Assembly: GCA_005223095.1 (NCBI GenBank)
Contig: NJBQ01000001.1
Coordinates: forward strand, 8,408-72,407
DNA from: Candidatus Aerophobetes bacterium Ae_b3a
Lineage (GTDB): Bacteria; Aerophobota; Aerophobia; Aerophobales; AE-B3A
DNA: 64,000 bases
Direction: 5' to 3'
In this document: positions 4,051-55,670 of the stretch, one piece after another
How the letters are laid out: each line of letters opens with the position of its first letter
How positions within the stretch are numbered: position 1 is the stretch's first letter
The notes under the pieces: model-generated
Told to the model about the DNA's origin: nothing
Seen by the model: the letters and a program-made list of their open reading frames with translations, nothing else
Databases searched by the model: none
Translations under genes and position numbers: made by a program

Positions 4051-4110
4051 AAAATACTAGAAGCTGAAGAGAGTTGGGAATCAAGTTTCCGATGAGAATG
4101 AGAAATTAGA

Positions 4111-5181
4111 ATGAAGATACTACATACAGCAGATATTCATTTAAAGGAATATGAAGATGAGCGATGGGAGGCTCTTCAGGAACTGATTGAGGTTGGAAAG
4201 AAGGAAAGGGTCAAAATTTTTGTAATAAGTGGAGATCTTTTTAATAAAGATATTGATGCTGAAAACTTAAGACCTAAGATACGGAAGCTCTTCTCCCATA
4301 ATGGCTTTCAAATCGTCCTCATCCCGGGAAATCATGATAGTGATTCCTATGGGAGTGGTATGTATTTTGGTGAAGATGCTACTATTTTGACTGATTTAGA
4401 GGATTGCTTTGAATATAAAGGGGTGAGAATATGTGGTATTCCCTTTGAGCCTATAGAAGGAGAGAAAATTATTTATAAACTTCGCTCTTTTTTGAATAAA
4501 TTTACCTCGGATAAAAAGAAGAAAAACATATTACTCTACCATGGGGAACTACTTGATGCATTCTTTTCCCGAAAAGATTTTGGCGATGAGGGAGGGGAAA
4601 GATATATGCCGGTTAAGCTCTCTTACTTTAAAGATTTGAATATTGATTATGTGCTTGCCGGACATTTTCACTCTAATTTCCAGGTAAGGAGACTGGCAAA
4701 GGGGGGATATTTTGTTTATCCGGGTTCTCCTCTTTCGCTAACAAAAAGAGAGACAGGACAGAGAAAGGTTAATATCTTTAAGCTGGGAGGTCCGCCCGGG
4801 GAATATCTTCTTAATACTCCTTATCTAGAAGAAGTGAATATAATATTTGACCCCTTGAAAGACAAAATTCCGCTGCAGATTGTGAAAAAACATCTAGCCA
4901 GTTTTCCGCCTGAGGCAAAAATTATTCTCACCATCAAAGGATATGTTAACAGTAAAGAGATTAAGATGGATGAATCCGAACTGGTAGAAGAAATCAAGAA
5001 GATTGCCTCGAATAGGTGTGTTGAACTCCCTAAATTTGAATTCAAAGACATTCAGATGATACTAGAGGATGAGCTCTTTAAGAAACTCTTGCATAAACTT
5101 GAGCAAGCCGATTATGATGAGAAGAAAAAGAGACAGATGCGTGATATAGCCATTAAAGCAATGTCAGAGGCAAGAGTGTGA
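4111..5181 (+). CDS. SbcD/Mre11-like calcineurin-type metallophosphoesterase (YhaO-like)
   Basis: Phosphoesterase motifs HTADIHL, ISGDLFN and PGNHD in the expected order. Translationally coupled to the downstream Rad50-like gene (GTG at 5178 overlaps its TGA). Confidence 0.7.
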   Translation: MKILHTADIHLKEYEDERWEALQELIEVGKKERVKIFVISGDLFNKDIDAENLRPKIRKLFSHNGFQIVLIPGNHDSDSYGSGMYFGEDATILTDLEDCFEYKGVRICGIPFEPIEGEKIIYKLRSFLNKFTSDKKKKNILLYHGELLDAFFSRKDFGDEGGERYMPVKLSYFKDLNIDYVLAGHFHSNFQVRRLAKGGYFVYPGSPLSLTKRETGQRKVNIFKLGGPPGEYLLNTPYLEEVNIIFDPLKDKIPLQIVKKHLASFPPEAKIILTIKGYVNSKEIKMDESELVEEIKKIASNRCVELPKFEFKDIQMILEDELFKKLLHKLEQADYDEKKKRQMRDIAIKAMSEARV

Positions 5182-7520
5182 AAATAAAGGGATTTTCAAT
5201 AACAAGATACGGTCCTCTGTCTAAGATGGAGCAAATTTCACTGGGCAATTTCAACCTATTCTTTGGCAGGAACGAGGAGGGAAAAACACTAACCATAGAT
5301 GCTTTGGTGAAGATGCTCTTGAGAAAAAACATCAGAGATTTTATCCATATTAATCGAGTAGAAGAGAATCCAGAAGGTTATGTAATCATAGAAAATGAGG
5401 AAAAAGAGGAAGTCAAATTACCCGAAAAAGGGGATTTAACAAAATTGGCTGACCTCACTTCTTCAGAATGCCGTAATATTTTTATCATAAGAAATAGTGA
5501 CCTTTCTATTGCCGCCGAGAGTGAGTTTTATACCAATGTAACCGATCGCCTCACTGGTTTAAAAACAAGACAGATTCTCTCTATAAAGAATAAGCTGCAG
5601 GAATTGGGGAAATTAACCCGAGCAGATAGCACTGCCTCCCTTTCTAATAAGAAAGAATTTGGGAAAATAAAATCTCGTCTTGATAGGGCTGCTGGACTTA
5701 TTGAAAAGACAAGCACTTTAGAAGATGAGGTTAAAGAAGAGGGCTTCGACAGACTGGAAGAGGAGTCTATACGGGTGAAGGAAGAGAAAGACAAAATCAG
5801 GGAAAAAATAGAAGAATTTGAAGAAGCGGGTAAAAGAGAAAAATATGAAAAGGGAAAAGAAGCCCTGAAGGCTCTTAAGCGAGCTTTTAGAAAGAGTAAG
5901 GATTTGGAAGTTTATAACCAGGAGGATAGCCAGTTGTGGAGAGATAATGAGAGAGACATCAAGGCTAATGAAAAAGAAAAAGAGCAGCTTTTAGTTGAGC
6001 TTGATAAAAAGGAGAAGAAATTTCAAAAGACATCTGAAAATTTGAAGCAAAGAGAGCAACAGTTCCATATTTTCAAGGAAAGAAAGAAGGAACTGGATAA
6101 TGAGGTTAAACCAGAGATAAAAAATTATCAGACAAAGAAGGGAGAGTTGGTGCTTAAGGAGACAAAGAATAAATTCCTTACTTTTCTAATGACAGTTTCT
6201 GTAATATTATTGGGGGTCTCTTTGCTGGGAATTATTATTAGACCCGGCTTACTTTTCTATCTATTAGCTATCTTATTTTCAATTTCATTTGTGGTTTCAA
6301 GTATATTTAAACTCCAATTAAAGAAAGAGAAAGGCTCGCTGGCACAATTGTTTGAGAGAATTAAACTAAATCTTTCACGATTTGCTCTAAGGACAAACGA
6401 TATAGAAGGAGTTCTTTTTCATATTCAAAAGTTTGAGGACCAATACGGCAAAAAGGCTGGTGAATTAGAGGAGGTCAGAGGAGAGAAAAAGTTATTACAA
6501 AGCGAGATGGAAAAATTAAAACAAGAGAGAATTACAGAGATAGAAGATAGGATAAAGAGTGCTTACAGAAAAATAGAGGATGTGAAGATAAAGACAAGAG
6601 AGGAATCGCTCCCAAAATATAGCCAAAAACTGAGACTAAAACTGAAGTGTGAGAAGTTAGTCAGGGAGCAGGAAAGCTTTTTGAAAGCTCTTTTAGGAGA
6701 AAAGGGTGAGAGTTTAGAAGAAAACATTTCCCATTGGGATGAAGAGCTCAAAGAGCTGGAGGAGTATAAAGATAGAGCCAGGCATATGAAGTATAATGAG
6801 AAGAGTATTGCAGGATTAAAAGAGAAAGGAAAATTACTTGAGGAGGAGTCGAGGAAAATAGAGAGCACGATGGAGAAGTTCCAGAAGGAATTGGCAGAAA
6901 TAGAAAGAAGAGTGAATGAGATTCTAGGAGGAGAGCTAGAAGAAGATTACTTATATTGCAAGACCTCGGTGGACTTAGAGGCGATTGAAAATAAATTGCA
7001 GGAATCTATAGATGAAAATGAGACTAATAAGGATAATGTTCTTGAAGTTATGAAAATTTTTGAGAAAATAGAAAAGGAGGAAAAGGAGAAAGTCTCTCAG
7101 CTTTTTGGTGAGGAGAGCTCTGTCTCACAGCATTTTAAGGAAATAACCGATGGTCTTTACCAGAAGGTGGTCTTTCAGCAAGAAAGAGGAAAAATCAAGG
7201 TAGAGCGCAAAGATGGATTGATTCTGGATGCAGAAAAGCTATCCGGTGGTGCCTATGACCAATTATACCTTTCTATTCGACTTGCTCTGGGGGAAAAGCT
7301 CTTAAAGAAAAAGAAGGGATTCTTTATTATGGACGACCCTTTTATAAAGGCCAGTCCTGATAGATTAAAAAGACAGATGAAAATGCTGAAGAGAATCTCC
7401 AGTTCGGGATGGCAGATTATCTATTTTACTGCAAAAGGAGAAGTGAAGGAGGCTTTAAAAGAGGATATAGACAGCAGAATGGTTAATTATGTTGAGGTAA
7501 AAAGTTCTCTGAAATTATAG
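5178..7520 (+). CDS. Rad50/SbcC-like ABC-type ATPase with a long coiled coil and a central two-helix membrane hairpin (YhaN/AAA_27-like)
   Basis: N-terminal Walker A FFGRNEEGKTLT, C-terminal signature LSGGAYDQLYLSIRLAL and Walker B-like FFIMDDPF. About 450 aa of K/E-rich heptad sequence in between. The hydrophobic stretch FLTFLMTVSVILLGVSLLGIIIRPGLLFYLLAILFSISFVVSSIF (nt ~6177-6315) interrupts the coiled coil where a Rad50 zinc hook would sit. Confidence 0.65.
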   Translation: MKIKGFSITRYGPLSKMEQISLGNFNLFFGRNEEGKTLTIDALVKMLLRKNIRDFIHINRVEENPEGYVIIENEEKEEVKLPEKGDLTKLADLTSSECRNIFIIRNSDLSIAAESEFYTNVTDRLTGLKTRQILSIKNKLQELGKLTRADSTASLSNKKEFGKIKSRLDRAAGLIEKTSTLEDEVKEEGFDRLEEESIRVKEEKDKIREKIEEFEEAGKREKYEKGKEALKALKRAFRKSKDLEVYNQEDSQLWRDNERDIKANEKEKEQLLVELDKKEKKFQKTSENLKQREQQFHIFKERKKELDNEVKPEIKNYQTKKGELVLKETKNKFLTFLMTVSVILLGVSLLGIIIRPGLLFYLLAILFSISFVVSSIFKLQLKKEKGSLAQLFERIKLNLSRFALRTNDIEGVLFHIQKFEDQYGKKAGELEEVRGEKKLLQSEMEKLKQERITEIEDRIKSAYRKIEDVKIKTREESLPKYSQKLRLKLKCEKLVREQESFLKALLGEKGESLEENISHWDEELKELEEYKDRARHMKYNEKSIAGLKEKGKLLEEESRKIESTMEKFQKELAEIERRVNEILGGELEEDYLYCKTSVDLEAIENKLQESIDENETNKDNVLEVMKIFEKIEKEEKEKVSQLFGEESSVSQHFKEITDGLYQKVVFQQERGKIKVERKDGLILDAEKLSGGAYDQLYLSIRLALGEKLLKKKKGFFIMDDPFIKASPDRLKRQMKMLKRISSSGWQIIYFTAKGEVKEALKEDIDSRMVNYVEVKSSLKL

Positions 7521-7925
7521 TAAACATTTCTGGGTGGCATTATGGTGAGATAGTATAATTTTTTAGATTCTATCATGGACTACAAGACCTTGTTTGAGAT
7601 TTAAGGTCTTCTACATTAGAAAATTTCTTGACTTTTCCTTCTCTTATATCCTTCTCTGTCTCTCTTTCGCCTTTCTGCCATTCCTCAGTCCACCATAATC
7701 GAATGGTTTGACACGCACTGTGTTACGTAACAGACTTAAGGCGGGTTCTTGACACAGCGGTGGTTTCCATTAAAATGAAAACCAGTTCCTCTTAATGGTG
7801 AAAACTTTCTAATTTTCTTAAAAAACAGAATTACTGACAATATTACTTCTTGGGACGGGGTTTTTACCTCTTCCCTGGAAGATAGAAGAACTTACTCAGA
7901 CTTACCGCTGAAGAAAGGATTTCTT

Positions 7926-8861
7926 GTGCCTAAAGGATTTGGTCGAGACATTATCCATCGATGGCAAGGAAATCCCATTATTACAATTGAAGATCTCTCA
8001 TTCCGCTGTATCGACATATGCAATGCGGGTGCTGTGAAAGTAGCTGACCAATATATCCTTTTATTAACAATACAGAATCTTGAAGGACGCTATTCCATGT
8101 ACTGCGCACAAAGTACGGATGGGTATTATTTCGAGGTGGACGATCGACCGTTTTTGTCCCCCTGTCAGGAGAAGCCATTGGCAATCTACGAGGAACGGGG
8201 TGTTCTCGATGGCAGAATTGTCTTGCTGGAAGGGGTGTACTACATCTGTTACGATGCTCTTGGGCGCCACGGCTATCGAGCTGCGCTTGCCCGCACAGAA
8301 GACTTCAGGACCGTTCAGCGTATAGGTGCTGTTTCCGAGCCAGATACCAAAAGTGGCGTGCTATTCCCGAGGAAGATCAAAGGAAAATATGCCCGACTGG
8401 AAAGACCCTGGGAAGGACGCAGTATCTGGGTTAGTTATTCTGAAGATCTAGAATATTGGGGGTGGTCCGAGGTAGTAGCGACCCCGCGAGGTGGCTCTTG
8501 GGACTCCGACCACATAGGCATTGCCACACCCCCAATAGAAATCGATCCCGGGTGGCTTTTCATTTACTATGGCGTTAAACAGACCTCTACCGGACCGCTC
8601 TTTCGCCTTGGAGCAGTAATTCTCGACGCAGAGAACCCCATAGAAATCTTAGGCCGAACAAGTGCTCCCATTCTCTCGCCACGCGAGGATTACGAGCGCA
8701 TAGGAGATGTGTCTAATCTGGTATTTTCGTCTGGAGCAATTATCGAACCGAACGGCGGAGTAAGACTGTACTACGGAGCAGCTAACTCCTGTATATGCCT
8801 GGGTACAACGAAGGTGCAAAACATTGTGCAGGCATGCCTGAAAAGCGAGAAGGAATTCTGA
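7926..8861 (+). CDS. GH130-family glycosidase/phosphorylase (beta-mannoside-acting family), paralog 1
   Basis: GTG start. Blocks RWQGNPII, LLEGVYYICYDA and the five-bladed-propeller pattern with VLFPRKIKGKYARLERP match GH130 (DUF377) conserved regions. Confidence 0.65.
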   Translation: MPKGFGRDIIHRWQGNPIITIEDLSFRCIDICNAGAVKVADQYILLLTIQNLEGRYSMYCAQSTDGYYFEVDDRPFLSPCQEKPLAIYEERGVLDGRIVLLEGVYYICYDALGRHGYRAALARTEDFRTVQRIGAVSEPDTKSGVLFPRKIKGKYARLERPWEGRSIWVSYSEDLEYWGWSEVVATPRGGSWDSDHIGIATPPIEIDPGWLFIYYGVKQTSTGPLFRLGAVILDAENPIEILGRTSAPILSPREDYERIGDVSNLVFSSGAIIEPNGGVRLYYGAANSCICLGTTKVQNIVQACLKSEKEF

Positions 8862-14886: not shown

Positions 14887-14899
14887 CCTTAATAATTAT

Positions 14900-14930
14900 C
14901 CCCCCTCCCTCAGGGAGGGGGGATTTCTGT
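14900..14930 (+). terminator. GC-rich hairpin CCCCCCTCCC-tca-GGGAGGGGGG followed by ATTTCTGT (terminator-like; member of the GC-palindrome repeat family)
   Basis: Perfect 10-bp stem directly after the SBP stop codon, with a T-rich tail on the + strand. Confidence 0.45.
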
Positions 14931-14940
14931 AGGATAAAAA

Positions 14941-23592: not shown

Positions 23593-23748
23593 TCTTAACC
23601 TCGATTTTAGCGTTAATATCTGGTGTTTTTCATATTTTCCACTATCGTGTTGCCATTGCCAGGCGAAGCCGAAGCAATCCCATGAGATTGCCACGCTTGT
23701 TTTCAGCAAGTTCGCAATGACGGAAAACAGGGATCTATACGCTAAACG

Positions 23749-24942
23749 CTATCCGCTATCTACTATTCCACTTACCTGCTCTACATCCTTATCGCCCCGT
23801 CCAGACAGATTAACCACCACTATCTTATCCTTGTCCAATTCAGGCACCAGTTTGCTTAGATAGGCAATAGCATGGGCACTTTCCAGGGCTGGAATGATTC
23901 CCTCCAGTTCAGATAGAGTTTGAAAAGCTTTCAGCGCCTCCCTGTCATTAACGGTAACATATTTGGCTCTGCCGATTTTTTTAAGATGGGAGTGTTCTGG
24001 TCCAACTCCTGGATAATCCAGGCCAGCAGCCACTGAGTGAGTTAGGCTGATTTGTCCATATTTATCTTGCAGTAGATAGCTTTTTGCTCCATGCAGTATA
24101 CCGATGCTCCCTCGAGCTAGGGTGGCTCCGTGTTTATCTTCTGAAAGATCTAGCCCTCCTGCTTCCACTCCAATTAATTGCACAGCATCTTCCAGAAAAG
24201 GGTAAAAGAGCCCCAGGGAATTACTGCCTCCTCCCACACAGGCTACCAGATAGTCAGGCACTCTTTTCTCTTTGAGCAGAATTTGTTCTTTTGTTTCCTT
24301 GCCTATGACTGATTGAAAATCCCGCACCATCATAGGATAGGGGTGAGGTCCCACTACTGAGCCCAGAACATAATAAGTAGTTCTGACATTGGTTACCCAA
24401 TCTCTAATGGTTTCATTGATTGCATCCTTTAAAGTACAGCTTCCTGAGGAAACAGGAATTACTTCTGCACCTAATAACTCCATTCTAAATACATTAAGTC
24501 GCTGCCGTCTAATATCCTCATCTCCCATATATACTCTACAGGGAAGCCCTAATACAGCGGCAGCCGTAGCTGTGGCTACCCCATGTTGACCAGCTCCAGT
24601 TTCAGCAATAATACGTTTTTTGCCCATTCTTTTAGCTAGAAGTACCTGTCCCAGAGTATTATTGATTTTATGAGCTCCGGTATGGGCCAGGTCTTCTCTT
24701 TTAAGATAAATCTTAGCTCCAGCTAAGCTTTTGGTTAGTCTTTCGGCAAAATAAAGTGGCGTGGGGCGACCAGCATAATCGGCTAAATATTTCTCTAATC
24801 TCTTATGAAAATCTTTATCTTCTTTTGCTTCTGAATAAGCCTCCTCTAATTCTTTCAGAGCAGGCATAAGTGTTTCGGGAACAAATTTTCCTCCGAAGGC
24901 TCCAAAATGTCCTTTTTTATCGGGCAGACTATGATGCTCCAT
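23749..24942 (-). CDS. trpB: tryptophan synthase beta subunit (TrpB1)
   Basis: [16 protein letters not shown], the PLP lysine region HTGAHKINN, and GGGSN. Confidence 0.9.
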
Positions 24943-25561: not shown

Positions 25562-25651
25562 ATTGCGTTAATTAACCCCTCACCTTAATCCTCTCCCCCA
25601 AGGGGAGAGGGAATTTCTTTTTTCGAGCAACGAATTTCGATTCACCATTCA

Positions 25652-26500
25652 CTAAATACTATTCACCATTTTAAGCTCTCTCAGTTTTTCTCCCACATTT
25701 TTACTTTTCAATAAGGCCTCTCCTATCAAAAAGGCATCTACTCCTGCTTCTTGGAGCCTGTAGATATCTTTTTTATTGTTAATTCCACTTTCACTGACTA
25801 CTACTCTATCCGAAGGTATCTTCTTTATAAGATTGAAACTCATCTTTAAATCTACTTTAAGATTTTCCAGATTCCTATTATTAATGCCCACAATATCAAC
25901 AGGAAGGTCTTTGATTTTTTGCCACTCTTCCTCAGCGTGAATTTCTACCAGACAGTCTAAATCCATTTGCCAGGCCAAATCTAGATATTCTTTTAACTTT
26001 TCTCTATCTAATATGCGAGCAATTAGGAGTAGAGCATCCGCTCCCCCGGTTCTAGCCTCATAAATTTGATACTCATCCACTATAAACTCTTTTGCCAGAA
26101 TGGGAAGGGAAGAGGCTTTCCTCGCCTTCTCTAAATCTTTAAGCTCTCCCTTAAAGAACTTCTGGTCAGTCAAAATAGATAGAGCTGAGGCGCCATTCTT
26201 CTCATAAATTCTGGCTAGTTCCTCTAAACTAAAATTTTTAATTATAACTCCAGCTGAAGGGGAGGCTCTCTTAATCTCAGCAATAATATTAATCTTTGTT
26301 GCAGAGGAGATAGCTTTCCTGAAGTTCCTGGTGGGAGTAGAAGCGGCTAGCTTCGATTTTAGGGCCGCCAATGGGACTTCTTTTTTTCGCCTGGCAACCT
26401 CTTTAAGCTTATTATTTACTATCTCATCTAAGATCAAAGTCGTTCCCCTCACCCCATCCCTCTCCCCACAGGGGAGAGGGCGCCATTTACCACTCACCAA
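25652..26500 (-). CDS. trpC: indole-3-glycerol phosphate synthase
   Basis: ILDEIVNNKLKEV..., IIAEIKRASPS, VDAFLIGEALLKS are IGPS blocks. Confidence 0.85.
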   Translation of the reverse strand: MVSGKWRPLPCGERDGVRGTTLILDEIVNNKLKEVARRKKEVPLAALKSKLAASTPTRNFRKAISSATKINIIAEIKRASPSAGVIIKNFSLEELARIYEKNGASALSILTDQKFFKGELKDLEKARKASSLPILAKEFIVDEYQIYEARTGGADALLLIARILDREKLKEYLDLAWQMDLDCLVEIHAEEEWQKIKDLPVDIVGINNRNLENLKVDLKMSFNLIKKIPSDRVVVSESGINNKKDIYRLQEAGVDAFLIGEALLKSKNVGEKLRELKMVNSI

Positions 26501-26560
26501 TTAACCAATCACCACTTACCATCTTATTGTTTTTCTCGATGAACTATGGACCATGAACTA

Positions 26561-27571
26561 TCAACTATTAGTAAATTCAACCAGGGATTCCAGTTTCTTA
26601 TTAGCTTTTCCCGAGTCAACGGAGTCTTTGGCTATCTTGATTCCTTCCTTGAAACTTTTGGCTCGTCCTGCTGCTACCAGACAAGCGGCAGTATTGATAA
26701 GAATGATGTCTCTTTTGGCGCCTTTTCCTCCTCTTAAAATGTCTTTAAGAATGCGGGCGTTTTCTTCTCTATCTCCTCCCCTTATCTCCTCTAAAGAAGC
26801 CCTTTGCATGCCAAAGTCTTCTGGTCTAATATAATAAGTTTTTATTTTACCCTCTTTTAGCTCGGTTATTCTTGTTCTTGCCTTAATGCTGATTTCATCA
26901 AGGCCATCTTCTCCCCAGACAACAAAGGCACTTCTCACCCCCAGATTCTTTAATACTCTGGCTAACGGCTCGGTAAGAGAAGAACTATGCACGCCCATAA
27001 GACGCACATTAGCTCTCAGTGGATTAATCAGGGGCCCCAGAATATTAAATACTGTTCTCATTCCCATTTCTTGTCGCGGTGCAAGAGCATATTTCATAGC
27101 CGGATGACAACAAGGAGCAAAAAGAAAACCAATTCCTATTTTTTCCAGGCACTCTTTCACCTTTTCTTTAGATGTAGTTAGCTTTACTCCCAAGGCTTCC
27201 AGAACATCAGCGCTGCCACATTTGCTGGAAAGGGCCCGGTTGCCATGTTTAGCTACGGTTAGCCCTGCTCCTGCTACAACCAAGGCAACCACCGTAGAAA
27301 TGTTAAAAGTATTAAGACTATCGCCTCCGGTTCCGCAGGTGTCCACTAAGGTATCTATCTTTATAGAAAAGGTATCGACTTTCTCCAGCATTGCTCTGGC
27401 AAAACCAGTAATCTCAGCTACTGTCTCTCCCTTCATCCTAAGAGCAGTAAGAAATGAAGCAATCTGAGCGGGAGTAGCTTTTCCTTCCATAATCTCTTTC
27501 ATTACTTGCCTTGCTTCTTCCTCTTGCAGGTTCTTTCTTTCCACCAACATTTTTAAGATGTTTTTCATCAT
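26561..27571 (-). CDS. trpD: anthranilate phosphoribosyltransferase
   Basis: [27 protein letters not shown], the GTGGD motif, and [21 protein letters not shown]. Confidence 0.9.
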
Positions 27572-27616
27572 TTTTTTTCGGTCCTATACGCTAAACGCTA
27601 CCCGCTATACGCTATA

Positions 27617-28219
27617 TTAGCAAGGCAGTTCCCACATTTTGAGGTGAATGCTTTCTTCCAGTTTTAAAAAGTTCTTTAATAATTTCTTACCTGCTTCAGT
27701 CAATATTGATTCCGGGTGGAATTGCATGCCGAAGACAGGATATTCTTTATGTCTTATTCCCATAATTTCTTCTTTCTTGGTCCAGGCAGTTCTGATTAAA
27801 CAATCGGGAAGAGTGCCATTCTTGATTATTAAAGAGTGATAACGGGTAGCCAGGAAAGGATTTTCTGTTCCCTGGTAAATATCCTTACCATAATGATAGA
27901 TTAAAGAGGTTTTCCCGTGCATAAGAATTTTTGCTCTGACAATCTTTGCTCCAAAAACTTCGCCTATACACTGATGTCCCAGGCAGACTCCCAGAATAGG
28001 AATCTGAGAAGCGAAATGCTCCACTACCTGTTCAGAAATGCCGGCATTTTTTGGCTGACCCGGACCAGGAGAAATGACAATTCCCTCTGGCTTTTTTTCT
28101 TCTATTATCCTTAAGCTAATCCTATCATTGCGATAGACCTCTGTTTTCTTTCCCAGTTCCTCCAGATATTGGACCAGATTATAGACAAAGGAATCGTAAT
28201 TATCAATAACCAGAATCAT
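27617..28219 (-). CDS. trpG: anthranilate synthase component II (glutamine amidotransferase)
   Basis: MILVIDNYDSFVYNLVQYL, catalytic GVCLGHQ, and the C-terminal HPES. Overlaps trpE by 4 nt. Confidence 0.85.
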   Translation of the reverse strand: MILVIDNYDSFVYNLVQYLEELGKKTEVYRNDRISLRIIEEKKPEGIVISPGPGQPKNAGISEQVVEHFASQIPILGVCLGHQCIGEVFGAKIVRAKILMHGKTSLIYHYGKDIYQGTENPFLATRYHSLIIKNGTLPDCLIRTAWTKKEEIMGIRHKEYPVFGMQFHPESILTEAGKKLLKNFLKLEESIHLKMWELPC

Positions 28220-29712
28220 TCTATACCTTTCTCGGCTATTTCAATGGCTTTAATCAAAGCACGGGCCTTATTTAGTGTTTCCTCATATTCAGACTCAGGC
28301 TCAGAGTCAGCCACAATACCTGCCCCTGCTTGAATATAAGCAATGTTATCTTTAATGAGGATGGTGCGAATAATGATGCAGGTATCCATATTTCCAGAAA
28401 AGCTAAAGTATCCTAGCGCTCCAGCATAAGGACCCCGGCGGCAAGGTTCAAGCTCTTCGATAATTTCCATTGCTCTTACCTTAGGAGCTCCAGAGACTGT
28501 TCCTGCCGGAAAACAGGCCCTAAGAAGGTCGTATTGGTCCATTCCTTTCCTTAGTTTCCCCTGGACATTGGAAACAAGGTGCATAACATGAGAGTATTTC
28601 TCTACTGAAAATAGCTCTGTTACCTTGACTGTCCCATACTCACAGACTCTTCCCATATCATTGCGTCCCAGGTCCACCAGCATTATATGTTCGGCTCTCT
28701 CCTTAGGATCGATAGATAGTTCCTCAGCCAGGAGTTCATCTTCTGCTCTATCTTTTCCCCGTTTTCTCGTTCCCGCGATAGGTCTATAGGTTATTTCTTC
28801 TTCCTCCATTCTTACCAGAGTCTCGGGGGAGCTTCCCACTATCTCAAAATCTCCACATTTCAGGTAATACATATAAGGAGAAGGATTGAGAGATCTTAAA
28901 GTGCGATAAATGTCAAAAGCAGAAGCGTCCACTTTTCTTTTTAATCTCTGAGATAAGACTACCTGGAAAATGTCCCCTGCCCTGATATATTCTTTGGCTT
29001 TTTTTACCTTAGACTGGAAAATATGAGAGGTGAAGTTAGATTCAATCTTCTCGTTAGCAATTTCTTTCTTTTTTTCTTTTCTCTCACCATGAAGCAAGGA
29101 AGGAGAAGGCTGCCTCAATTTTTTGATCACCCCATCTATTTCATGCTTGGCTTTCTGGTAGGCTATTTGAGGAGATTCCTTTTTCTCTAAAAGGGCGTAA
29201 GAGACTACCTTTATTTTATGACTAAGATGGTCAAAGATAATTAAAGTATGACTGAGCATAAATAGGGAATCGGGAAGGTTTAAATCGTCCTGATTGTTCT
29301 CAGGGATTTCTTCCCAGAAACGGACCATGTCATAACCAACATAACCTACTGCTCCTCCTGAAAAACGAGGAAGTTTTGCTGAATTAACCGTTTTGTAGCC
29401 AGCCATAATCTTTTTTAAGGCATCTAAGGGGTCTTTCTCCACTCTTAGAATTTCACTTTTTCCTTGTCGGATAATTTCTATTCTTTCCCCTTTGCTTTTG
29501 AAAACAAGGACAGGGTCGCTGCCTAAGAAAGAATATCTCCCTAGTTGTTCGCCTTTTTCTACACTTTCTAAAAGATAGGAGAACTTTCCCTTCCCCAGTT
29601 TAATGAAAGCAGAGACAGGAGTTTCTAAGTCAGCCAATATCTCTCGCCAGACAGGGATGAGATTTCCTTTTTTAGATAAGGTTTCAAATTTTCTCTCGTC
29701 CGGATAATACAA
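28216..29712 (-). CDS. trpE: anthranilate synthase component I
   Basis: 498 aa with a chorismate-binding C-terminal domain (GAVGYVGYD..., RGPYAGALGYFSFSGNMDTCIIIRT). Confidence 0.9.
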   Translation of the reverse strand: MYYPDERKFETLSKKGNLIPVWREILADLETPVSAFIKLGKGKFSYLLESVEKGEQLGRYSFLGSDPVLVFKSKGERIEIIRQGKSEILRVEKDPLDALKKIMAGYKTVNSAKLPRFSGGAVGYVGYDMVRFWEEIPENNQDDLNLPDSLFMLSHTLIIFDHLSHKIKVVSYALLEKKESPQIAYQKAKHEIDGVIKKLRQPSPSLLHGERKEKKKEIANEKIESNFTSHIFQSKVKKAKEYIRAGDIFQVVLSQRLKRKVDASAFDIYRTLRSLNPSPYMYYLKCGDFEIVGSSPETLVRMEEEEITYRPIAGTRKRGKDRAEDELLAEELSIDPKERAEHIMLVDLGRNDMGRVCEYGTVKVTELFSVEKYSHVMHLVSNVQGKLRKGMDQYDLLRACFPAGTVSGAPKVRAMEIIEELEPCRRGPYAGALGYFSFSGNMDTCIIIRTILIKDNIAYIQAGAGIVADSEPESEYEETLNKARALIKAIEIAEKGIE

Positions 29713-29880
29713 TAATTTGCCCCCTCACCCTACTCCCCCAAGGGGGGAGAGGGTGTTTTCTTTTCTTGCCAGTGACTAGCAAGTAGTGACAAGCGACGAA
29801 TTTTGAGGAATGTCCTTCGGTACAGATGCAAATTCCTCTGATTCAAGTAGATGTAGCTAGAGAGGAATAATAAGCAGAAC

Positions 29881-31233
29881 CTATACCTCTTCCACTTCAG
29901 GCAAAGATTTAAGCGCCTCCTCAATCTTTTCCTGGGGATAGGCATAATCTTCTAGTTTCCCTCTGAAATAAGTATCATAGGCGCCCAAATCAAAGTAACC
30001 GTGGCCAGAATGATTGAAGACAATTACCGTCCCTGGCTTGGCTTTCTTTGCTTCTTCGATTACCGCTTTGGTAGCATGGGCTGTTTCGGGTGCCGGCAGA
30101 AATCCTTCTGTCTGAGTGAATAGCAACGCCGCATCAAATACCTCTTTTTGATGATAAGCCTGGGCCTCTATTAGCCCCAATTTCAGTAGATGGCAGAGAA
30201 TGGGTGCATCGCCATGATATCTCAGACCTCCCGCATGAATTGGAGGAGGAACAAAAGAGTGTCCCAGAGTAAACATCTTCACCACCGGTCCCGTTCCAGC
30301 GGTATCCCCAAAATCATACCTATATGGGCCTCTAGTGAGGCTGGGACAGGCTGTAGGTTCTACAGCTATGAACCGTATGTTCTCGCCAGCAAGCTTTCTG
30401 GGAAGAAAAGGTAGGAAGAAGCCACTAAAGTTACTTCCTCCTCCTACACAGCCAATCATTATATCTGGCTTCTCTCCTACTTTATCCAGTTGTTTTTCCA
30501 CCTCTAAGCCTACTATGGTCTGATGGAGAAGAACGTGATTTACCACGCTTCCTATTGAGTATTTGGTGTCTTCATGAGTCGCTGCATCTTCTATTGCCTC
30601 GGATATGGCAATTCCCAGACTACCAAGGCAGTCTGGATCTTCTTTGCGGGTTTTCTTGCCGAATTCTGTGCGATTAGAGGGAGAGCGAAACATCTCTGCT
30701 CCCCAGCTTTGAGCTAAGAACCTTCTGTAAGGTTTTTGGTCGTAGCTTATCCCTACCATATAGATAGTGCATTCTAATCCGAACATCCTACATGCAAAAG
30801 CCAAAGCACTTCCCCATTGGCCGGCTCCGGTCTCGGTAGCTAATCTTTTAACCCCTTCTTTCTTGTTATAGTAGGCCTGGGCGACGGCTGTATTTGGTTT
30901 GTGGGAACCTGGCGGGGATAGGGATTCATCTTTATAATATATCTTAGCCGAGGTTCCTATTGCCTCCTCTAACCGATAGGCTCTACGCAGGGGAGTGGGA
31001 CGGTATTGAGTATAGACCTTCAATACTTCCTCAGGTATGTCAATACGGTGCTGGGGAGACATCTCCTGTTCAATACAAGCCATGGGGAAAATTGGCAAAA
31101 GGTCTTCCGGAACCAGAGGCTTTTTAGTGCCAGGGTGCAGTTCCGGGGGTAGGGACCCAGGCAAATCTGGTAAGACATTGTACCATGCTTTTGGTATTTC
31201 TCTTTCTTGTAGTAAGATTTTTTTCTCAGCCAT
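29881..31233 (-). CDS. trpB2: TrpB2-type tryptophan synthase beta-like protein (indole-salvaging paralog)
   Basis: 450 aa with the longer TrpB2-type N-terminus [25 protein letters not shown]. The PLP lysine context GSHKPNTA and GGGSNFSG. First gene of the trp cluster. Confidence 0.8.
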
Positions 31234-31429
31234 ACTCTTTCTCCTTTTCTTTGTTTTTTCTATGTTTTTTTGGAATTCTTAGCTTTCTTCTCTCCCCCCC
31301 CTTCCATTTTTATATCTTATGTTTTGATGCTCAATGCAATAAAAAAACTGCGCTCTAAGCCCAGTTTTCTTAAAAACAACCTCTAACCCAGGCTCGTCTC
31401 ATCTTATCTTGTCTATTCTAATCTGGAAA

Positions 31430-31654
31430 TTACTTGCCAGACTCTACTTTTCCATATTTTGAAAGGATTTCGGCTTTGCCTCTAATCTTTATGGCTGAAA
31501 TATGTTGGGTGAACTGAGAGATCCAAACCTCACCCTTATCTAGTTTTTCCGTATGGTGAACAACTGTTTCTTTGCCTCGCGTTAAGCCAATAATAGTAAC
31601 CCCATTCTCGCAGGCTTTGACTACAATAAGATCAGCTTTTTGTGATTCTTCCAT
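31430..31654 (-). CDS. small hypothetical protein (74 aa); beta-rich, very loosely CsrA/SpoVT-like in pattern
   Basis: ORF with G-rich SD-like upstream sequence. ENGVTIIGLTRGKETVVH alternates hydrophobic and polar residues. No confident family assignment. Confidence 0.3.
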   Translation of the reverse strand: MEESQKADLIVVKACENGVTIIGLTRGKETVVHHTEKLDKGEVWISQFTQHISAIKIRGKAEILSKYGKVESGK

Positions 31655-31806
31655 CTATTCCTCGTATCTCGTTTCCTCTTCCCCAGGGGAAGAGGATTAA
31701 AGTGAGGGGGAATCGAGCAATCAGTATCTAGAACTCAGACCCTTTTCTTTTTCTAAGGTGCGATTCACCATTCACCACTCACCATTCACGAACAACGGGT
31801 CTTAAG

Positions 31807-32202
31807 TTACCTCTTAGGAATCTGATGTCTTGCTCTGGCTCCGGTCAATCCCGGTTTCTTTCTTTCCTTCATCCGGGGGTCCCGGGTTAGGAAACCGGCT
31901 TTTCTCAGGATTCCTTTTAGCTCAGGATTTACCCTCAGAAGAATCCGAGAAAGTCCGAGCCTTATAGCTTCCGCCTGGCCAGTTAAGCCTCCTCCTTTGA
32001 CTTTTACCTCCACATCAAATCTGTCCAGAAAATCTACTTTCTCTAAGGGCTCCTTTATTATTTTGATATAAGTCTTGCGGGGAAAGTAATCATCAATAGT
32101 CCTTTTGTTAACCATCATATTACCCTTGCCCGCCTTCATCCTTACCTGCGCTGTTGCCGTTTTTCTTCTTCCTGTAGCAGCATAACCTTCCATTTTATTC
32201 AT
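31807..32202 (-). CDS. rpsI: 30S ribosomal protein S9
   Basis: GRRKTATAQVRMKAGKG...GGGLTGQAEAIRLGLSRIL...LTRDPRMKERKKPGLTGARARHQIPKR is the universal S9 pattern, with its basic C-terminal tail. Confidence 0.9.
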   Translation of the reverse strand: MNKMEGYAATGRRKTATAQVRMKAGKGNMMVNKRTIDDYFPRKTYIKIIKEPLEKVDFLDRFDVEVKVKGGGLTGQAEAIRLGLSRILLRVNPELKGILRKAGFLTRDPRMKERKKPGLTGARARHQIPKR

Positions 32203-32335
32203 CTCGCTCCTTGTTATGTTAAATTAGTATATGCTGATGTTACCAGAAAATTTAAACTCGTCAAGGATATTTTTGACATACTCAAACTTTTTCGCTAGTG
32301 TGGGAGTAGACTTCTAAAAATATTCTAATGAGGAG

Positions 32336-32542
32336 GTGAGAGAAATGAGACTATGGCTAGCATGGATCCTACTTATCCTGGGACTTGTTGTCCTTATCCC
32401 TACTTCCGTGGGAGGAGACAAGGTAAGTGCATTAGGATACGATGCTCTGTGTAGTTGGAGCCCCTATAGCTCCATCATTCTTTGGATTGGTGCGGGAATT
32501 AATTTCTGGCTGGCTGGCAAAAAGAAAAAGAAGGCGAAATAG
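32336..32542 (+). CDS. small predicted membrane protein (68 aa)
   Basis: GAGGAGGTGAG RBS. Two hydrophobic helices (LWLAWILLILGLVVLI, IILWIGAGINFWLAG) and a lysine-rich tail. Confidence 0.3.
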   Translation: MREMRLWLAWILLILGLVVLIPTSVGGDKVSALGYDALCSWSPYSSIILWIGAGINFWLAGKKKKKAK

Positions 32543-32681
32543 AACTGGATTTACCTGTGCCTTTCAAGGTTTTGTGCGGAAGTAATCAATTCTTTTGTGA
32601 TTAATTAGCTTCTACTGCTTCCGGCTGAAATCCAGGATTTCAGTTATCGTCTCTAATGGTGAAGAATTCAAAAGACTGGTT

Positions 32682-33665
32682 CTAATCTATCGGAGTAGTT
32701 TCTGGAATGAGGTACTTGAAGAACTTTGACTCCAGGGGCACTACAATGAGCGTCTTCTGGGTAAGAGTTTCTCGGTAAGTTTCTAAAGTTTTCAAAAAAT
32801 TGAAGAAGTCAGGGTCTTGCTCATAAGCTTGAGCATAGGTGGCGGTAGCTCTGGCATCTGCCTGTCCTTTTATCTCCTGGGCTTTTCGGTAAGCTTCTGA
32901 CCTTATCTGGGCCAGTTCCTTTTCCATCTCTCCTAAGATTTTAGCTCTCTCACCTTCTCCTTCCGACAAATACCTATTTGATATCCGATTCCTCTCAGCC
33001 TTCATTCTGGAAAAAACAGCATCAGTATTAGCTTTAGGAAGATCAGCCCTGGTGATTCTCACATCTATGATCTCTATTCCATATTGCCTGGTAACAGTAT
33101 CACTCTTTTTGGTGACATCTCTCATAATTTTCTCTCTGCCCGCCTCTATCTTTTCTATCTCTTCTCTTTCTCTTTTTCTCTCTTCTTCCCAGGTTACCTC
33201 GGTAGAGATGATTTCTCTATCAGATGTTCTTATGATTTCCATCATGTTATACTTACCCACCTCTTCCCTGAGCACAGAATAGATAATATCATCAAGTCGC
33301 GCGTAAGCTCCCACCTCGTTTCTGACCGTCTTCAGAAAGAGAAGGGGATCAACTATTCTCCATCGGGCATAGTTGTCAAGGAATATATACTTTTTGTCCT
33401 CAGTAACACATCTTCTGGCAGCAGCATCGTATTCCAGCAGTCGATCCTCAAATCTATTTACCTTCTGGACAAAGGGCTTTTTTATGTAAAGACCTGGTTT
33501 TTTAACTGTTTTTATGGGCCTTCCCAGCTCGGTAATGACTACCTGATTTATTTCATTGACAGTATAAACAGTGGAATTAAGCGTTAAAAGGCCTATTACT
33601 ACAATGATAATTTCCAGCAGCAGGTAATTACTTATTTTGGGAATGATATTTTTTTTAGTAGCCAT
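32682..33665 (-). CDS. hflC: HflC-like SPFH/band-7 membrane protease modulator
   Basis: N-terminal TM, an SPFH domain, and a C-terminal coiled coil rich in E/R/K. Immediately downstream of an HflK-like gene. Confidence 0.7.
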   Translation of the reverse strand: MATKKNIIPKISNYLLLEIIIVVIGLLTLNSTVYTVNEINQVVITELGRPIKTVKKPGLYIKKPFVQKVNRFEDRLLEYDAAARRCVTEDKKYIFLDNYARWRIVDPLLFLKTVRNEVGAYARLDDIIYSVLREEVGKYNMMEIIRTSDREIISTEVTWEEERKREREEIEKIEAGREKIMRDVTKKSDTVTRQYGIEIIDVRITRADLPKANTDAVFSRMKAERNRISNRYLSEGEGERAKILGEMEKELAQIRSEAYRKAQEIKGQADARATATYAQAYEQDPDFFNFLKTLETYRETLTQKTLIVVPLESKFFKYLIPETTPID

Positions 33666-33668
33666 ATC

Positions 33669-34607
33669 TTATCTCTTAGATGATTCCTCTAAACCTTTGT
33701 CTCTCAGATTCAAGAACTTCAAAAATCCTTCCTCAGCCTCTGAGATAACGATTTTTTCAATTTCTGGCAAAATGTTTCGCATTGTCTCTAGATAAAGCCT
33801 ATCTTTGGTTACCTGTTTTGCTTTTTTATATTCCTTTAGTCTTTGCAAGAATCTATTGGCGTCACCTTGAGCATGTTTTGTTCTTTCTACCGCGTATGCT
33901 TCTGCTTGTCTTATTGTTTTTTCTGCCTCACCCCTGGCTTTGGGGATTTCCTGATTATATTTTCCCAAAGCTTCATTGATAAACCGCTCTCTATCTTCTT
34001 TGGCACTGGCAACCCTTTCAAATGCCTCTTTTACCTCGCCGGGAGCATGAACATCTTGCAGTTTTACTGTAACTACATAAATACCACTTTTATATAGGTC
34101 CAGAATTTCCTGCAGTTTATTCGCTGTTACCTCCTGAATTTCTTCTCGTCCCACGGTTAAGGCTTCATCCACACCTCTATCTCCGATGGTTTGTCTCATG
34201 GCCGCCTCGGCAGCATTCTTTATGGTTTTTTTGACGTTTCTAACATTGAAAAGATAATCTCTGGCATCCTTGATTCTATATTGAACAATAAACCAGAGGT
34301 CAACTATGTTTATATCTCCTGTCAGCATTAAAGCTTCTTCTTCAATAGATTCATAAACGGCAGGGGGACCTGTGCTTATAGTTCTATAGCCAATTTCCAT
34401 CTTTTGAACCTTGGCTACTTGGGGCTTGTCTATTCTCTCCACCGGCCAGGGTATATGGTAATATATCCCCGGGCCTCTAGAAGCATAATATCTTCCCCAA
34501 CGTCGGACTATCCCTTCTTGTTCCGGGTGGACAATATAAATACCTGAGAGAACCCACAGGACTATAACAACTATGACTATTACCAATCCTATTCTTTTAC
34601 GATTCAT
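33669..34607 (-). CDS. hflK: HflK-like SPFH/band-7 protein
   Basis: MNRKRIGLVIVIVVIVLWVLSGIYIVHPEQEGIVRRWGRY is the typical HflK start. SPFH core and a coiled-coil tail. Confidence 0.7.
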   Translation of the reverse strand: MNRKRIGLVIVIVVIVLWVLSGIYIVHPEQEGIVRRWGRYYASRGPGIYYHIPWPVERIDKPQVAKVQKMEIGYRTISTGPPAVYESIEEEALMLTGDINIVDLWFIVQYRIKDARDYLFNVRNVKKTIKNAAEAAMRQTIGDRGVDEALTVGREEIQEVTANKLQEILDLYKSGIYVVTVKLQDVHAPGEVKEAFERVASAKEDRERFINEALGKYNQEIPKARGEAEKTIRQAEAYAVERTKHAQGDANRFLQRLKEYKKAKQVTKDRLYLETMRNILPEIEKIVISEAEEGFLKFLNLRDKGLEESSKR

Positions 34608-34664
34608 ACTTTCCCCTCACCCTTCCCTCTCCCCAGAGAGGAGAGGGCATACGATATACGAGTA

Positions 34665-36632
34665 TCATTTCATTATACCATAAGTGGTGAATATTCTCAA
34701 GACCTCGTTGGGTAATTCAGCTAAGCGGTCCCTTTTTATAATAACATAATCATCTATGAGAAATTTGGCACATTCTTCGTGCTCGGCTCCAATAACAAAC
34801 AGAAAAGGAAGAATTCCATCTTCTTGCAAGCTCTTGAAGCTCTCTCTTACATCCTGGGGAGTATCTGGCTCTCCATCAGTAATGATACAAAACCCCTTGG
34901 GCATGCCTTCAACCTCCCTCAGATTATCAGAAATGTATTTTATAGCATTGACCATCAAGGTACCTCCGTAAGGAGATAGGGACATTATTCTTCCTCTGTT
35001 TTCTTCACCATAATTTTCTTTAAAGTCTTTTATTGTATAGACTGTATCCTTATAATTCATTATTTCTCTGAATAAGATTCCCCCCGAATGGAAAGCAAAA
35101 ATGCCGAAAGGATAACCAGAATAGTTCAATGCCTCACCCTGTATCAATAAAGCATCCTTAATATAATCAATTATTCTATATCCAAATCCAAAAGCAGTAG
35201 AAGAACTTATATCTGCTAAAATAGCCCAGGCTGCCTTTTTTTTAATTCTGGCTCTCTTGCGGAACATCTTTTTATTTGGTCTTACCCCGGTAGCCTCATA
35301 TTCTAATTCTGCCTGGACGTATTCTCCTATGTTAATTTCCTCGCCGGCTCTAGCTTTCTTTTTTCCTCTATATCTTTCCTCTAATCTTTTAAAATAGCTC
35401 TCAATGGCTCTAATTTCTCCATTATATTTTTCTATTGTCTTATGAGCTTTCTCAATGTCGCTGCGGGAGCCCTGGGGTATGGCTATATTCACCCCTGGAC
35501 TTGGCTTGGGTACTATCTTTCTAAAATAACCACTGCCTATCCAATAGCTGAGCTTATCTTTTTCTGAAGCGGAGTCTATTTTCTGTTTCTCTTTCTCTTT
35601 CTGTCTTTTTCCCCTTCTATCTTGCTTTTCGCTCTCTTTTTCTTTCTTAAATCGAGGTTCTCTCTCTTTGTGTTCGCCTGGAATTGATTCCTCTGGCTGA
35701 TTTTTTTTTGCTTTTTTCTTTGGACTTATCTTTTTTTGCTGCTCTTTTTTGGCTGATGAAGCTTTTCTTTCTTTTCTATCCTGAACTGAAGGGTGCTTTT
35801 TACCCTCTTCCCTCCCTTCCCTTGGTTTTACAGAACCCTTATATTTCTTGGGAAGACCTGGACTCATCCTACTATGGCCCCTGCCAGCAAAGGGAGGAAG
35901 TTGTCTCATAGGCTGCTTGATATCAAAATTTTCCTTGAATTTGACATATATTTTTTCTGTTGCTTCTAAAGAGACATGAATATCCTTATTTTCTGCACTT
36001 CGCGCTATACTTACACATTCATTTAAGAGATTATTGTACTGAGGAGGAACCTCATCAATAGTCTCATCAAGCAAAGTCTTTTGCAGAAAAAATTCCCTGA
36101 AAGCACTTAACCCCTTTTTCTTTTTCATTAAGTATTTGGGACTGGGTCTTCTATTAAGATAGATACGTTTTTCTTTCTCCTTAGAAAAACGCGCCAGTCC
36201 AGGTAGCTCTCCCCTGGCTTTACGGTCTATTCTATTATCTTCCACTATATTAAAGATTTCATGGGCCAGGGTAGGATTCTCCTTAAATTTTTCCCTTAAG
36301 AAAAAGTCCTCCAGGAATCGATTTATCGATTTAGGGTCGTATTCTTTATCAGGATGGAACTCTTGATTTAGTTTGATAAATTCCTTTATATGGTCTGATT
36401 CGTGCCTTACGGCACTGGCAATCATAATTTCATTATCAGGATCAGTAAGAGCAAGCTTAAACTGAGTGGGTAGGTGTATCTTTTCTCCGTCAGTATAAAT
36501 AGCCGGACCAGAAATGAGAGGGAGAAAGGTTTTCTTATCAAAAACGAGCCGGTGTCTTTCACTAGCTCCATCCTCTATTCTAAAGTCTATAACCCTTTTT
36601 AACTCTGGTTCTATCTTTTGGCAGAGAGCCAT
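34665..36632 (-). CDS. large protein with a C-terminal von Willebrand factor A domain (CbbO/NorD-like partner of a MoxR-type ATPase); N-terminal region carries an HExxH motif; central K/E-rich low-complexity linker
   Basis: C-terminal vWA with MIDAS-like ILADISSST (DxSxS) and CIITDGEPD. N-terminal SAVRHESDHIKEF (HExxH). Residues ~260-340 are lysine/glutamate repeats (KKEQQKKISPKKKAKKNQPEE...). Confidence 0.6.
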   Translation of the reverse strand: MALCQKIEPELKRVIDFRIEDGASERHRLVFDKKTFLPLISGPAIYTDGEKIHLPTQFKLALTDPDNEIMIASAVRHESDHIKEFIKLNQEFHPDKEYDPKSINRFLEDFFLREKFKENPTLAHEIFNIVEDNRIDRKARGELPGLARFSKEKEKRIYLNRRPSPKYLMKKKKGLSAFREFFLQKTLLDETIDEVPPQYNNLLNECVSIARSAENKDIHVSLEATEKIYVKFKENFDIKQPMRQLPPFAGRGHSRMSPGLPKKYKGSVKPREGREEGKKHPSVQDRKERKASSAKKEQQKKISPKKKAKKNQPEESIPGEHKEREPRFKKEKESEKQDRRGKRQKEKEKQKIDSASEKDKLSYWIGSGYFRKIVPKPSPGVNIAIPQGSRSDIEKAHKTIEKYNGEIRAIESYFKRLEERYRGKKKARAGEEINIGEYVQAELEYEATGVRPNKKMFRKRARIKKKAAWAILADISSSTAFGFGYRIIDYIKDALLIQGEALNYSGYPFGIFAFHSGGILFREIMNYKDTVYTIKDFKENYGEENRGRIMSLSPYGGTLMVNAIKYISDNLREVEGMPKGFCIITDGEPDTPQDVRESFKSLQEDGILPFLFVIGAEHEECAKFLIDDYVIIKRDRLAELPNEVLRIFTTYGIMK

Positions 36633-39603: not shown

Positions 39604-39689
39604 TAAATCGTCGCCATTCTCGTATTGCGTCGTGCGTGATGCGTATTGCGCAATATGAAATACGAAAAGCGTAAATATTCACCGAACGA

Positions 39690-45724: not shown

Positions 45725-45790
45725 TTAATTAGGAGGGGGAAGGATATCCTTCCCCCTCCTACATTTCTTTCCTTTGTCCCTTTCCCTTGT

Positions 45791-50458: not shown

Positions 50459-50512
50459 GAATAGGAAGGGGTCCCGCTCTACAGGGGCCCCTTCTTTCTT
50501 AAAATCGTATAA

Positions 50513-55499: not shown

Positions 55500-55670
55500 C
55501 TCGGACAATTTTCTTCCGTCACCATTCTCGTATCTCGTTGTTCGTATCTCGTATCTAGTGTAACGTATTGCACTATGCTTTTTAAAGCCTTTTTTCGAGA
55601 TACGAGATACTAGATACGATTCACGTTTCTTCAAGGAATGTCCTTCGGCAAACGTATAAGTTCCTAATAC
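55500..55670 (+). repeat. composite intergenic repeat between hslV and hslU: TCACCATTC, CGTATCTCG units as an imperfect long inverted repeat, and a GGAATGTCCTTCGG module
   Basis: The arms CGTATCTCGTATCTAGTG and CGAGATACGAGATACTAGATACG flank a T-rich centre. GGAATGTCCTTCGG also occurs at 29803-29817. CGTATCTCG also occurs at 31673-31683. Confidence 0.5.

Follow-up and report, generated by a model that had tools for sequence, protein, structure and literature searches.

Five copies of a short GC-rich element are located at gene junctions in and beside the trp genes and upstream of hflK in a stretch of DNA from Candidatus Aerophobetes bacterium Ae_b3a (64 kb in total, referred to as the window). 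These copies, here named TM1 to TM5 (TM, triplex motif), are members of a known family, i.e., BoxC (Bergler 1992), also named the PIT element (Hoyne et al. 2000; Hoyne & Maher 2002) or the TM(ECO) triplex motif (Holder et al. 2015, PMC4666352), the three names referring to one element. This identification is firm: what is new here is the host, while the element is of a kind already described. The reading favored here is that the copies are family members that constitute a tolerated dispersed repeat, which incidentally donates Shine-Dalgarno (SD) sequences to the genes behind it. We assign this reading as a whole a probability of about 0.75; its mechanistic part, i.e., tolerance combined with incidental SD donation, is one that we infer.

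The practical gain is correct labelling, i.e., an annotation of the hairpins as terminators, as trp attenuators or as a novel family of repeats would be wrong. BoxC/PIT/TM is easily rediscovered because it is recorded neither in Rfam nor in the E. coli K-12 reference annotation, which is also the reason why it looked uncatalogued in an earlier note on this DNA, made from the sequence alone. The Aerophobetes copies bear on the thirty-year-old question of how the element functions and spreads, and they add new material: junctions of an essential operon that are cleanly filled or empty, a recent duplication of a 170-nt mosaic, a copy that is translated within trpE, a third block found at the SD position, and an occurrence in many phyla and on viral contigs. 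The copying unit and the rules of tolerance are now testable, while no new mechanism is revealed.

Three-block architecture and family membership

Of the six copies listed in the earlier note, five are composed of three blocks separated by short loops: a pyrimidine block (CCCTCTCCCC, block 1), its Watson-Crick complement (GGGGAGAGGG, block 2) and, directly beyond the palindrome, a mirror of block 2 (GGGTGAGGGG, block 3). The last of these defines the element but had been overlooked in the description as a two-arm palindrome, which covered two thirds of each element. Along the gene (-) strand, the order is 7-nt tandem repeats, often an A-rich stretch, block 1, a loop of 2-4 nt, block 2, another 2-6 nt, block 3 and a start codon. 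A scan for perfect hairpins (at least 8 pairs, at least 80% GC) returned just two sites, being too strict for the family, and was replaced by a three-block scan, which looks for blocks that could form a class II purine-motif intrastrand triplex: a block of pyrimidines is followed by its complement and then by a third one that runs antiparallel to block 2 (G·G, A·A and T·A rules; k = 8, at most one mismatch in each of the duplex and triplex layers). Five elements were found in the window and none in 30 shuffles of it, i.e., well in excess of a chance occurrence. At k = 8, the duplex/triplex mismatches are 0/0 for TM1, TM2 and TM5, 0/1 for TM4 and 1/1 for TM3.

The gene order on the - strand, as assigned with Pfam, is orf655, hflK, hflC, rpsI, mtrB (TRAP), trpB2, trpE, trpG, trpD, trpC, trpF, trpB and trpA, and the five copies occupy five separate spacers. 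TM1 (25576-25611, - strand; CCCTCTCCCC-ttg-GGGGAGAGG-attaa-GGTGAGGGG) is located at the trpC/trpF junction, where 14 nt separate the end of block 3 from the trpF ATG (25561). TM2 (26445-26480, - strand; CCCTCTCCCC-tgt-GGGGAGAGGG-atg-GGGTGAGGGG) is found at the trpD/trpC junction, with block 3 ending 7 nt before the TTG of trpC (26437). The same distance, to the TTG of trpE (29712), is seen for TM3 at the trpB2/trpE junction (29720-29755, - strand; CACCCTCTCCCCCC-tt-GGGGGAG-ta-GGGTGAGGGGG), a degenerate copy in which block 2 is truncated. TM4 (31675-31710, + strand; CCTCTTCCCC-a-GGGGAAGAGG-attaaa-GTGAGGGGG) resides at the rpsI/mtrB junction, inverted relative to the genes and to the other four copies and 20 nt from the mtrB ATG. 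TM5 (34613-34647, - strand; CCCTCTCCT-ctct-GGGGAGAGGG-aa-GGGTGAGGGG) is found at the orf655/hflK junction, in the 5' leader of hflK, and its block 3 ends 5 nt before the ATG (34607). Five of the six positions given in the earlier note hold a GC-rich stem or have one nearby. The stated range 31687-31707 is not palindromic; it comprises the second block, the second loop and the third block of the inverted TM4, the hairpin of which is found at 31675-31695. TM4 is unchanged in three independent assemblies of the same species, which shows that the elements are not assembly artefacts. The same-species contigs L001-L004 are 98.7-100% similar and have no power to show gain or loss.

Blocks 2 and 3 have the same sequences as the E. 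coli elements in Table 1 of PMC4666352, so that the supposed uncatalogued family is in fact the E. coli BoxC/PIT/TM(ECO). The strict published pattern is CCCTCNCCC-N3-6-GGGNGAGGG-N3-GGGNGAGGG (PMC4666352). TM2 (26446-26480, - strand) is the sole window copy that fits this pattern exactly, and TM1, TM4 and TM5 deviate merely in the length of loop 2 (5, 6 and 2 nt, respectively) or in one block position. The loop-2 variants AGTAA, ATTGA and ACTGA are also seen in other phyla. A search of the window with Rfam at the gathering threshold and a search for tRNAs gave no match.

The distribution of the element was assessed in a sequence collection using a pattern composed of blocks 2 and 3 only (GGGGAGAGG-N2-6-GGTGAGGGG), which was found on at least 120 stretches. 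By our own calculation, about 90 chance matches would be expected in 596 Gb for a pattern of 18 bases that allows five gap lengths, i.e., the raw number of matches is near chance, and the evidence therefore resides in block 1, which the pattern does not require. Block 1 was found upstream, with a short loop, in 115 of the 142 matches listed (81%; at least 120 genome loci), as compared with 0 of 135 (0-1%) at control positions. The hosts among the matches listed belong to Proteobacteria, Planctomycetota, Verrucomicrobiota, Acidobacteriota, Chloroflexota, Nitrospirota, Omnitrophota, Rokubacteria, Elusimicrobia and Myxococcota. A 40-nt consensus is present in all 5,426 of 5,426 complete E. coli genomes, at a median of 17 places. 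The earlier view of a dispersed, intergenic, REP-like repeat family holds, and further copies exist elsewhere in very large numbers.

The Aerophobetes copies share with BoxC/PIT/TM(ECO) the three-block architecture and nearly the same block sequences (CCCTC[T/G]CCCC, GGGGAGAGGG and GGGTGAGGGG), short variable loops, a length of about 35 nt, multiple and mostly intergenic copies in both orientations, the lack of a linked transposase and a local hypervariability between close relatives. They differ from the E. coli elements in several respects. The host is a candidate phylum with a low GC content (about 41%), while the strict TM(ECO) was reported for Proteobacteria; the density is 5 in 9 kb as compared with 23 in 4.6 Mb in strain MG1655; the copies are found at gene junctions inside an operon, with heptamer arrays alongside; loop 2 varies from 2 to 6 nt instead of the strict 3; inverted A+B pairs are absent from the window; and block 3 adjoins start codons, with one relative harboring an in-frame copy in a gene. 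In MG1655, the copies are always intergenic, without strand bias, 10-310 nt from open reading frames (ORFs), and show no functional bias (PMC4666352). In E. coli, loci that carry the element show more rearrangement than control sites do, and neither a transposase nor an integrase is associated with them (PMC4666352). In vitro, the E. coli sequences form a purine-motif intrastrand triplex, as seen with circular dichroism and nuclear magnetic resonance (NMR), with melting temperatures of 70-82 C; when the DNA is single-stranded, block 1 pairs with block 2 in a hairpin, and block 3 turns back onto block 2 via reverse-Hoogsteen G·G:C, A·A:T and T·A:T triads (PMC4666352). Triplex motifs rich in G/C are very numerous also in Microcystis, Anabaena and Nostoc (Holder et al., PMC4666352).

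The three-block element was also found on at least 120 stretches of viral or prophage contigs from IMG/VR (L205-L324), with block 1 in 120 of the 147 matches listed; these matches may include host DNA at prophage edges. No phage association of the element is reported in the literature.

Gain, loss and copying among relatives

Relatives were compared as a graded series of metagenome loci anchored at TrpC (designated by L and a number). In Aerophobetes-like loci, 14 TMs were found in 114 kb, as compared with none in 407 kb of distant loci. At the trpD-trpC junction, 8 relatives carry a TM and 11 do not, and in those that lack it the TTG of trpC is preceded by an ordinary SD (cctGAGGtat or AAGGAG). 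In L135, the TM at this junction is located 70 nt upstream of the start and is followed by more heptamers and an ordinary SD. The trpC and trpF genes abut (…gacaATGattaaa) in distant relatives and also in L130 and L135, where the TM is absent, and abutting genes are the ancestral state at this junction. In other lineages the trpC-trpF junction holds heptamers, heptamers together with a TM (the window and L127), unrelated fillers or an insert of 598 nt. The trpG-trpD junction carries a TM in L125 and L127 and none in the window. Over these three junctions the spacer length varies from 0 to about 600 nt, while the flanking proteins are 84-95% identical. The 598-nt insert (L139, 1022-1620) contains two small ORFs that resemble an antitoxin and a toxin by translation, and its presence marks the trpC-trpF junction as an insertion hot spot. 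In L127 and L137, the ends of the contigs are chimeric or folded back at the repeats, and they were left out as assembly artefacts.

The unit that is copied can be delimited from paralogous copies, in which the similarity ends at the start of block 1 and at the end of block 3. TM1 and the trpG-trpD copies of L125 and L127 are 95-97% identical over 35-39 nt, and TM2 and TM5 are 89.7% identical over 39 nt; in both cases the likeness is confined to the element. Larger units are also found. In L135, a non-coding mosaic of 170 nt is present at two sites (7830-7999 and 2706-2874), inverted and 97.6% identical. It is composed of heptamers, a TM, inverted heptamers and "attgtcctgaggtattt", and its tail is the SD-bearing sequence found before trpC in several relatives. 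Over approximately nine independent sites in relatives, about five copies are in the sense and four in the antisense orientation. A copy in L140 is antisense, as is TM4 of the window.

One copy is translated. In L138, a TM at 5419-5452 is found in frame inside trpE (4772-6313), where it gives rise to an insertion of 14 residues (…CSFSGNENVPPHPG…) in a protein that is otherwise colinear with, and 73% identical to, the TrpE of the window. At the same place the window trpE reads PSPSLLHGERKE (CCTTCTCCTTCC…GGTGAGAG), and this segment may be an eroded older copy. Another TM of L138 (2049-2135) carries a nested 22-nt hairpin (aaaaagcac-atc-gtgcttttt) in loop 2, i.e., a palindrome within a palindrome.

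In the favored reading, the TM behaves as a non-coding, non-autonomous repeat, which is gained, lost and copied in spacers, either alone (about 35 nt) or as part of heptamer mosaics. It would be tolerated where expression is unharmed and would have no dedicated trp-regulatory role. Copying would be likelier to occur by errors of replication or recombination provoked by the structure than by a dedicated transposase. A bolder proposal, which we regard as improbable, is that the three blocks form a structure recognised by an as yet unnamed, widely conserved copying machinery or by a horizontal vector, and that in Aerophobetes it travels in SD-bearing mosaic cassettes able to enter the junctions of translationally coupled genes with no polar effect. 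If true, this proposal would account for the near-identical units of about 35 nt across phyla and on phage or prophage contigs, and would imply that operon junctions are rebuilt repeatedly by a mobile donor of ribosome-binding sites.

Effects at the RNA level and alternative roles

In predicted folds of the sense-strand RNA, which model Watson-Crick pairs only, blocks 1 and 2 form a hairpin in every copy (bulged and of 13 pairs in TM3), and block 3 is largely unpaired. The stems comprise 9-13 bp. Because purine-motif triplexes do not form in RNA, this hairpin is the only structure that would be expected at the RNA level. The usual SD of genes in the window is AAGGAG(G), 4-9 nt before the start. 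For trpC, trpE and hflK, the sole candidate at the SD position is block 3 (GGTGA or GAGG), 5-7 nt before the start codon, and no other purine-rich candidate was found upstream of the TM-preceded genes. As judged from the sequences, block 3 was most likely co-opted after insertion as the SD of these three genes, displacing the ordinary SD seen in relatives.

Several observations weigh against the favored reading. The strict TM(ECO) pattern fits only one of the five copies, the others having a loop 2 of 2, 5 or 6 nt or a truncated block, and an in vivo dimethyl sulfate footprint was negative for the triplex (PMC4666352). The distance of 14 nt from TM1 to the trpF ATG is too long for a good SD, and TM4 is antisense. 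All window copies except TM4 have the sense orientation and lie near start codons, which could signal a selected function at the RNA level; this bias is balanced by the nearly equal orientations in relatives and by L135, in which the TM lies 70 nt off with an ordinary SD in between. In addition, the survey of enzymes covers 64 kb of the genome, and a cognate enzyme could be encoded elsewhere.

The alternative that best withstands the data, although we consider it unlikely, is that the elements are expression modules selected at the RNA level, in which an intercistronic hairpin combined with an SD protects the mRNA from exonucleases or sets translation rates, possibly toggling with an RNA G-quadruplex. 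The proximity of block 3 to start codons (5-14 nt) in the four sense copies would fit such a role, as would a stable hairpin that leaves block 3 largely unpaired in the predicted folds and the identity of TM4 across independent assemblies of the species. In addition, a candidate sigma-70-like promoter (TTGAGA-17-TATAAT, extended TG; 34672-34700, - strand) with 11 of 12 consensus matches is found just upstream of TM5, and if it is used, TM5 would be located at the 5' end of the hflK mRNA. The promoter scan yielded no more promoter-like sites than shuffled sequences did, and this site is a consensus match only. The presence or absence of the element at orthologous junctions shows that the genes function without it, and its position is not fixed: it is found 70 nt upstream of the start in L135, antisense in L140 and in TM4, and within a coding region in L138. 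Furthermore, the element is shared by many phyla and is located 10-310 nt from ORFs without functional bias in E. coli, and NMR of a DNA oligonucleotide gave a triplex and not a G-quadruplex (PMC4666352). In TM2 and TM5, the sequence GGGG-aga-GGG-atg-GGGG-tga-GGGG fits the G-quadruplex motif. This structure is nevertheless disfavored by the published NMR data and by the RNA hairpin, which sequesters block 2.

We find it quite unlikely that the copies are classical REP/BIME elements (REP, repetitive extragenic palindrome), i.e., imperfect palindromes mobilised by a RAYT (IS200/IS605 Y1 type) encoded elsewhere in the genome. Like these elements of enterobacteria and pseudomonads, the copies are short, GC-rich, palindromic, intergenic and present in multiple copies, often in operons; they form mosaics with other short repeats, as in BIMEs, and are polymorphic between relatives. 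REPs can also stabilise the upstream mRNA, e.g., that of malE-malF. Unlike the Aerophobetes element, a REP consists of a two-arm palindrome that ends in a conserved GTAG/CTAC and has its cognate RAYT. No GTAG/CTAC is found at any element end, the single CTAC (29730) being internal to TM3, and the conserved, asymmetric, non-palindromic mirror block is foreign to REPs. A Pfam scan of 47 ORFs of the window revealed no RAYT, Y1 or other transposase; the only recombinase gene in the 64 kb is of the XerC/D type and is located beside topA and hslVU. The family members in E. coli have no associated transposase or integrase either (PMC4666352). The assignment to the REP/BIME type proposed in the earlier note is not supported in its strict sense.

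A role as intrinsic terminators, either as internal trp attenuators or as stops for antisense transcription from the + strand, is very unlikely. The hairpins are very stable, and TM1 and TM3, each a GC hairpin followed by a T-run, head the list of terminator-like sites on the + strand; the + side T-tracts described earlier are real at these two copies (25611-25626 and 29756-29768) but absent from the other three, which have no T-run on either side. At no copy is there a U-tract or a terminator call on the sense (-) strand, which bears out the statement in the earlier note that these are not terminators of the flanking genes. The copies are located between genes that need to be co-transcribed, and they come and go in close relatives. 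In addition, PIT elements have no terminator activity in E. coli according to Hoyne & Maher (2002), as that work is summarised in PMC4666352, where promoter activity is likewise reported to be absent.

A part for the elements in TRAP-mediated trp attenuation, as terminator or antiterminator hairpins or as TRAP sites, is suggested by mtrB in the cluster and by the four copies in or beside trp genes, but it is effectively refuted: the elements lack (G/U)AG triplets repeated every 2-3 nt (criterion: nine to eleven triplets), the sole leader-like run (31393-31425), with its terminator of a hairpin and U7, is a leader of its own upstream of trpB2, one copy precedes hflK, relatives keep their trp genes without the elements, and the element is also found in E. 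coli and other phyla. In these organisms, to our knowledge, no TRAP is known.

Neighboring features of the window

The gene names trpC, trpF, trpD, trpE, trpB2, rpsI and hflK given earlier are confirmed by Pfam. The "small ORF" behind rpsI is mtrB (TRAP; 31430-31654, - strand; PF02081, E = 5.5e-36), which already bears this name at NCBI, while the gene described as a vWA gene (34665-36632) has no Pfam match. Directly after the mtrB stop codon, seven NAG triplets with uniform 2-nt spacers (CAG-UAG-UAG-AAG-AAG-GAG-GAG) are found at 31393-31425, followed by a hairpin and U7 upstream of trpB2 (within 31340-31430, - strand). The region 31340-31430 (- strand) looks like a TRAP-controlled attenuator, here a candidate by sequence, in a candidate phylum far from Bacillus; the statistics of the triplet run are modest, as a chain of seven was also reached in one of 50 shuffles. 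In L138 (TrpC identity about 70%), trpE follows directly after rpsI (4017-4772) with neither mtrB nor trpB2 in between, i.e., the TRAP-trpB2 module is variable within the lineage.

Heptamer arrays on the - strand accompany three of the copies. An array of GGTAAGT/GGTGATT-like units in the sense orientation (26483-26526) abuts block 1 of TM2. Another (GGTGAAT/AGTATTT; 25631-25672), upstream of TM1, provides the final five codons of trpC together with its stop. A third (GTGAATG in four sense units; 31763-31789) is located after rpsI, 52 nt from TM4. More tandem 7-nt arrays are found in spacers of the window at 23735-23759, 27584-27616, 39621-39650, 55526-55556 and 55596-55619; the heptamer types in these spacers are CGTATAG, GGTGAAT, GGTAAGT and CGAGATA, and the number of units differs between relatives. 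Cyanobacteria reportedly harbor STRR heptamer repeats and small dispersed repeats. As compared by description, the likeness consists of tandem 7-nt arrays in spacers with repeats of about 20-40 nt in or beside them, while the phylum and the heptamers (here GGTGAAT, CGTATAG and CGAGATA) differ.

The sixth stem assigned to the family in the earlier note, at 14900-14922 (+ strand; CCCCCCTCCC-tca-GGGAGGGGGG), is a two-arm GC hairpin between the gene of a solute-binding protein (SBP) and a permease gene. It has another sequence, no third block was found there by the three-block scan, and it falls into a different class, which leaves five family members. Strong GC hairpins (-25 to -29 kcal/mol) of unrelated sequence follow all three SBP genes of the window, before the permease gene (14887-14940 and 50459-50512 on the + strand, 45725-45790 on the - strand). 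Because each SBP gene has its own hairpin, that at 14900 belongs to this functional class and not to the repeat family. The window hairpins resemble the intercistronic stem-loops after SBP genes of ABC-transporter operons in their location, with the SBP gene on one side and the first permease gene on the other, and unlike the members of the repeat family each has its own sequence. By this analogy, they may act by partial termination or 3' protection, and they are consistent with intra-operon stem-loops that would raise the expression of the SBP relative to the permeases.

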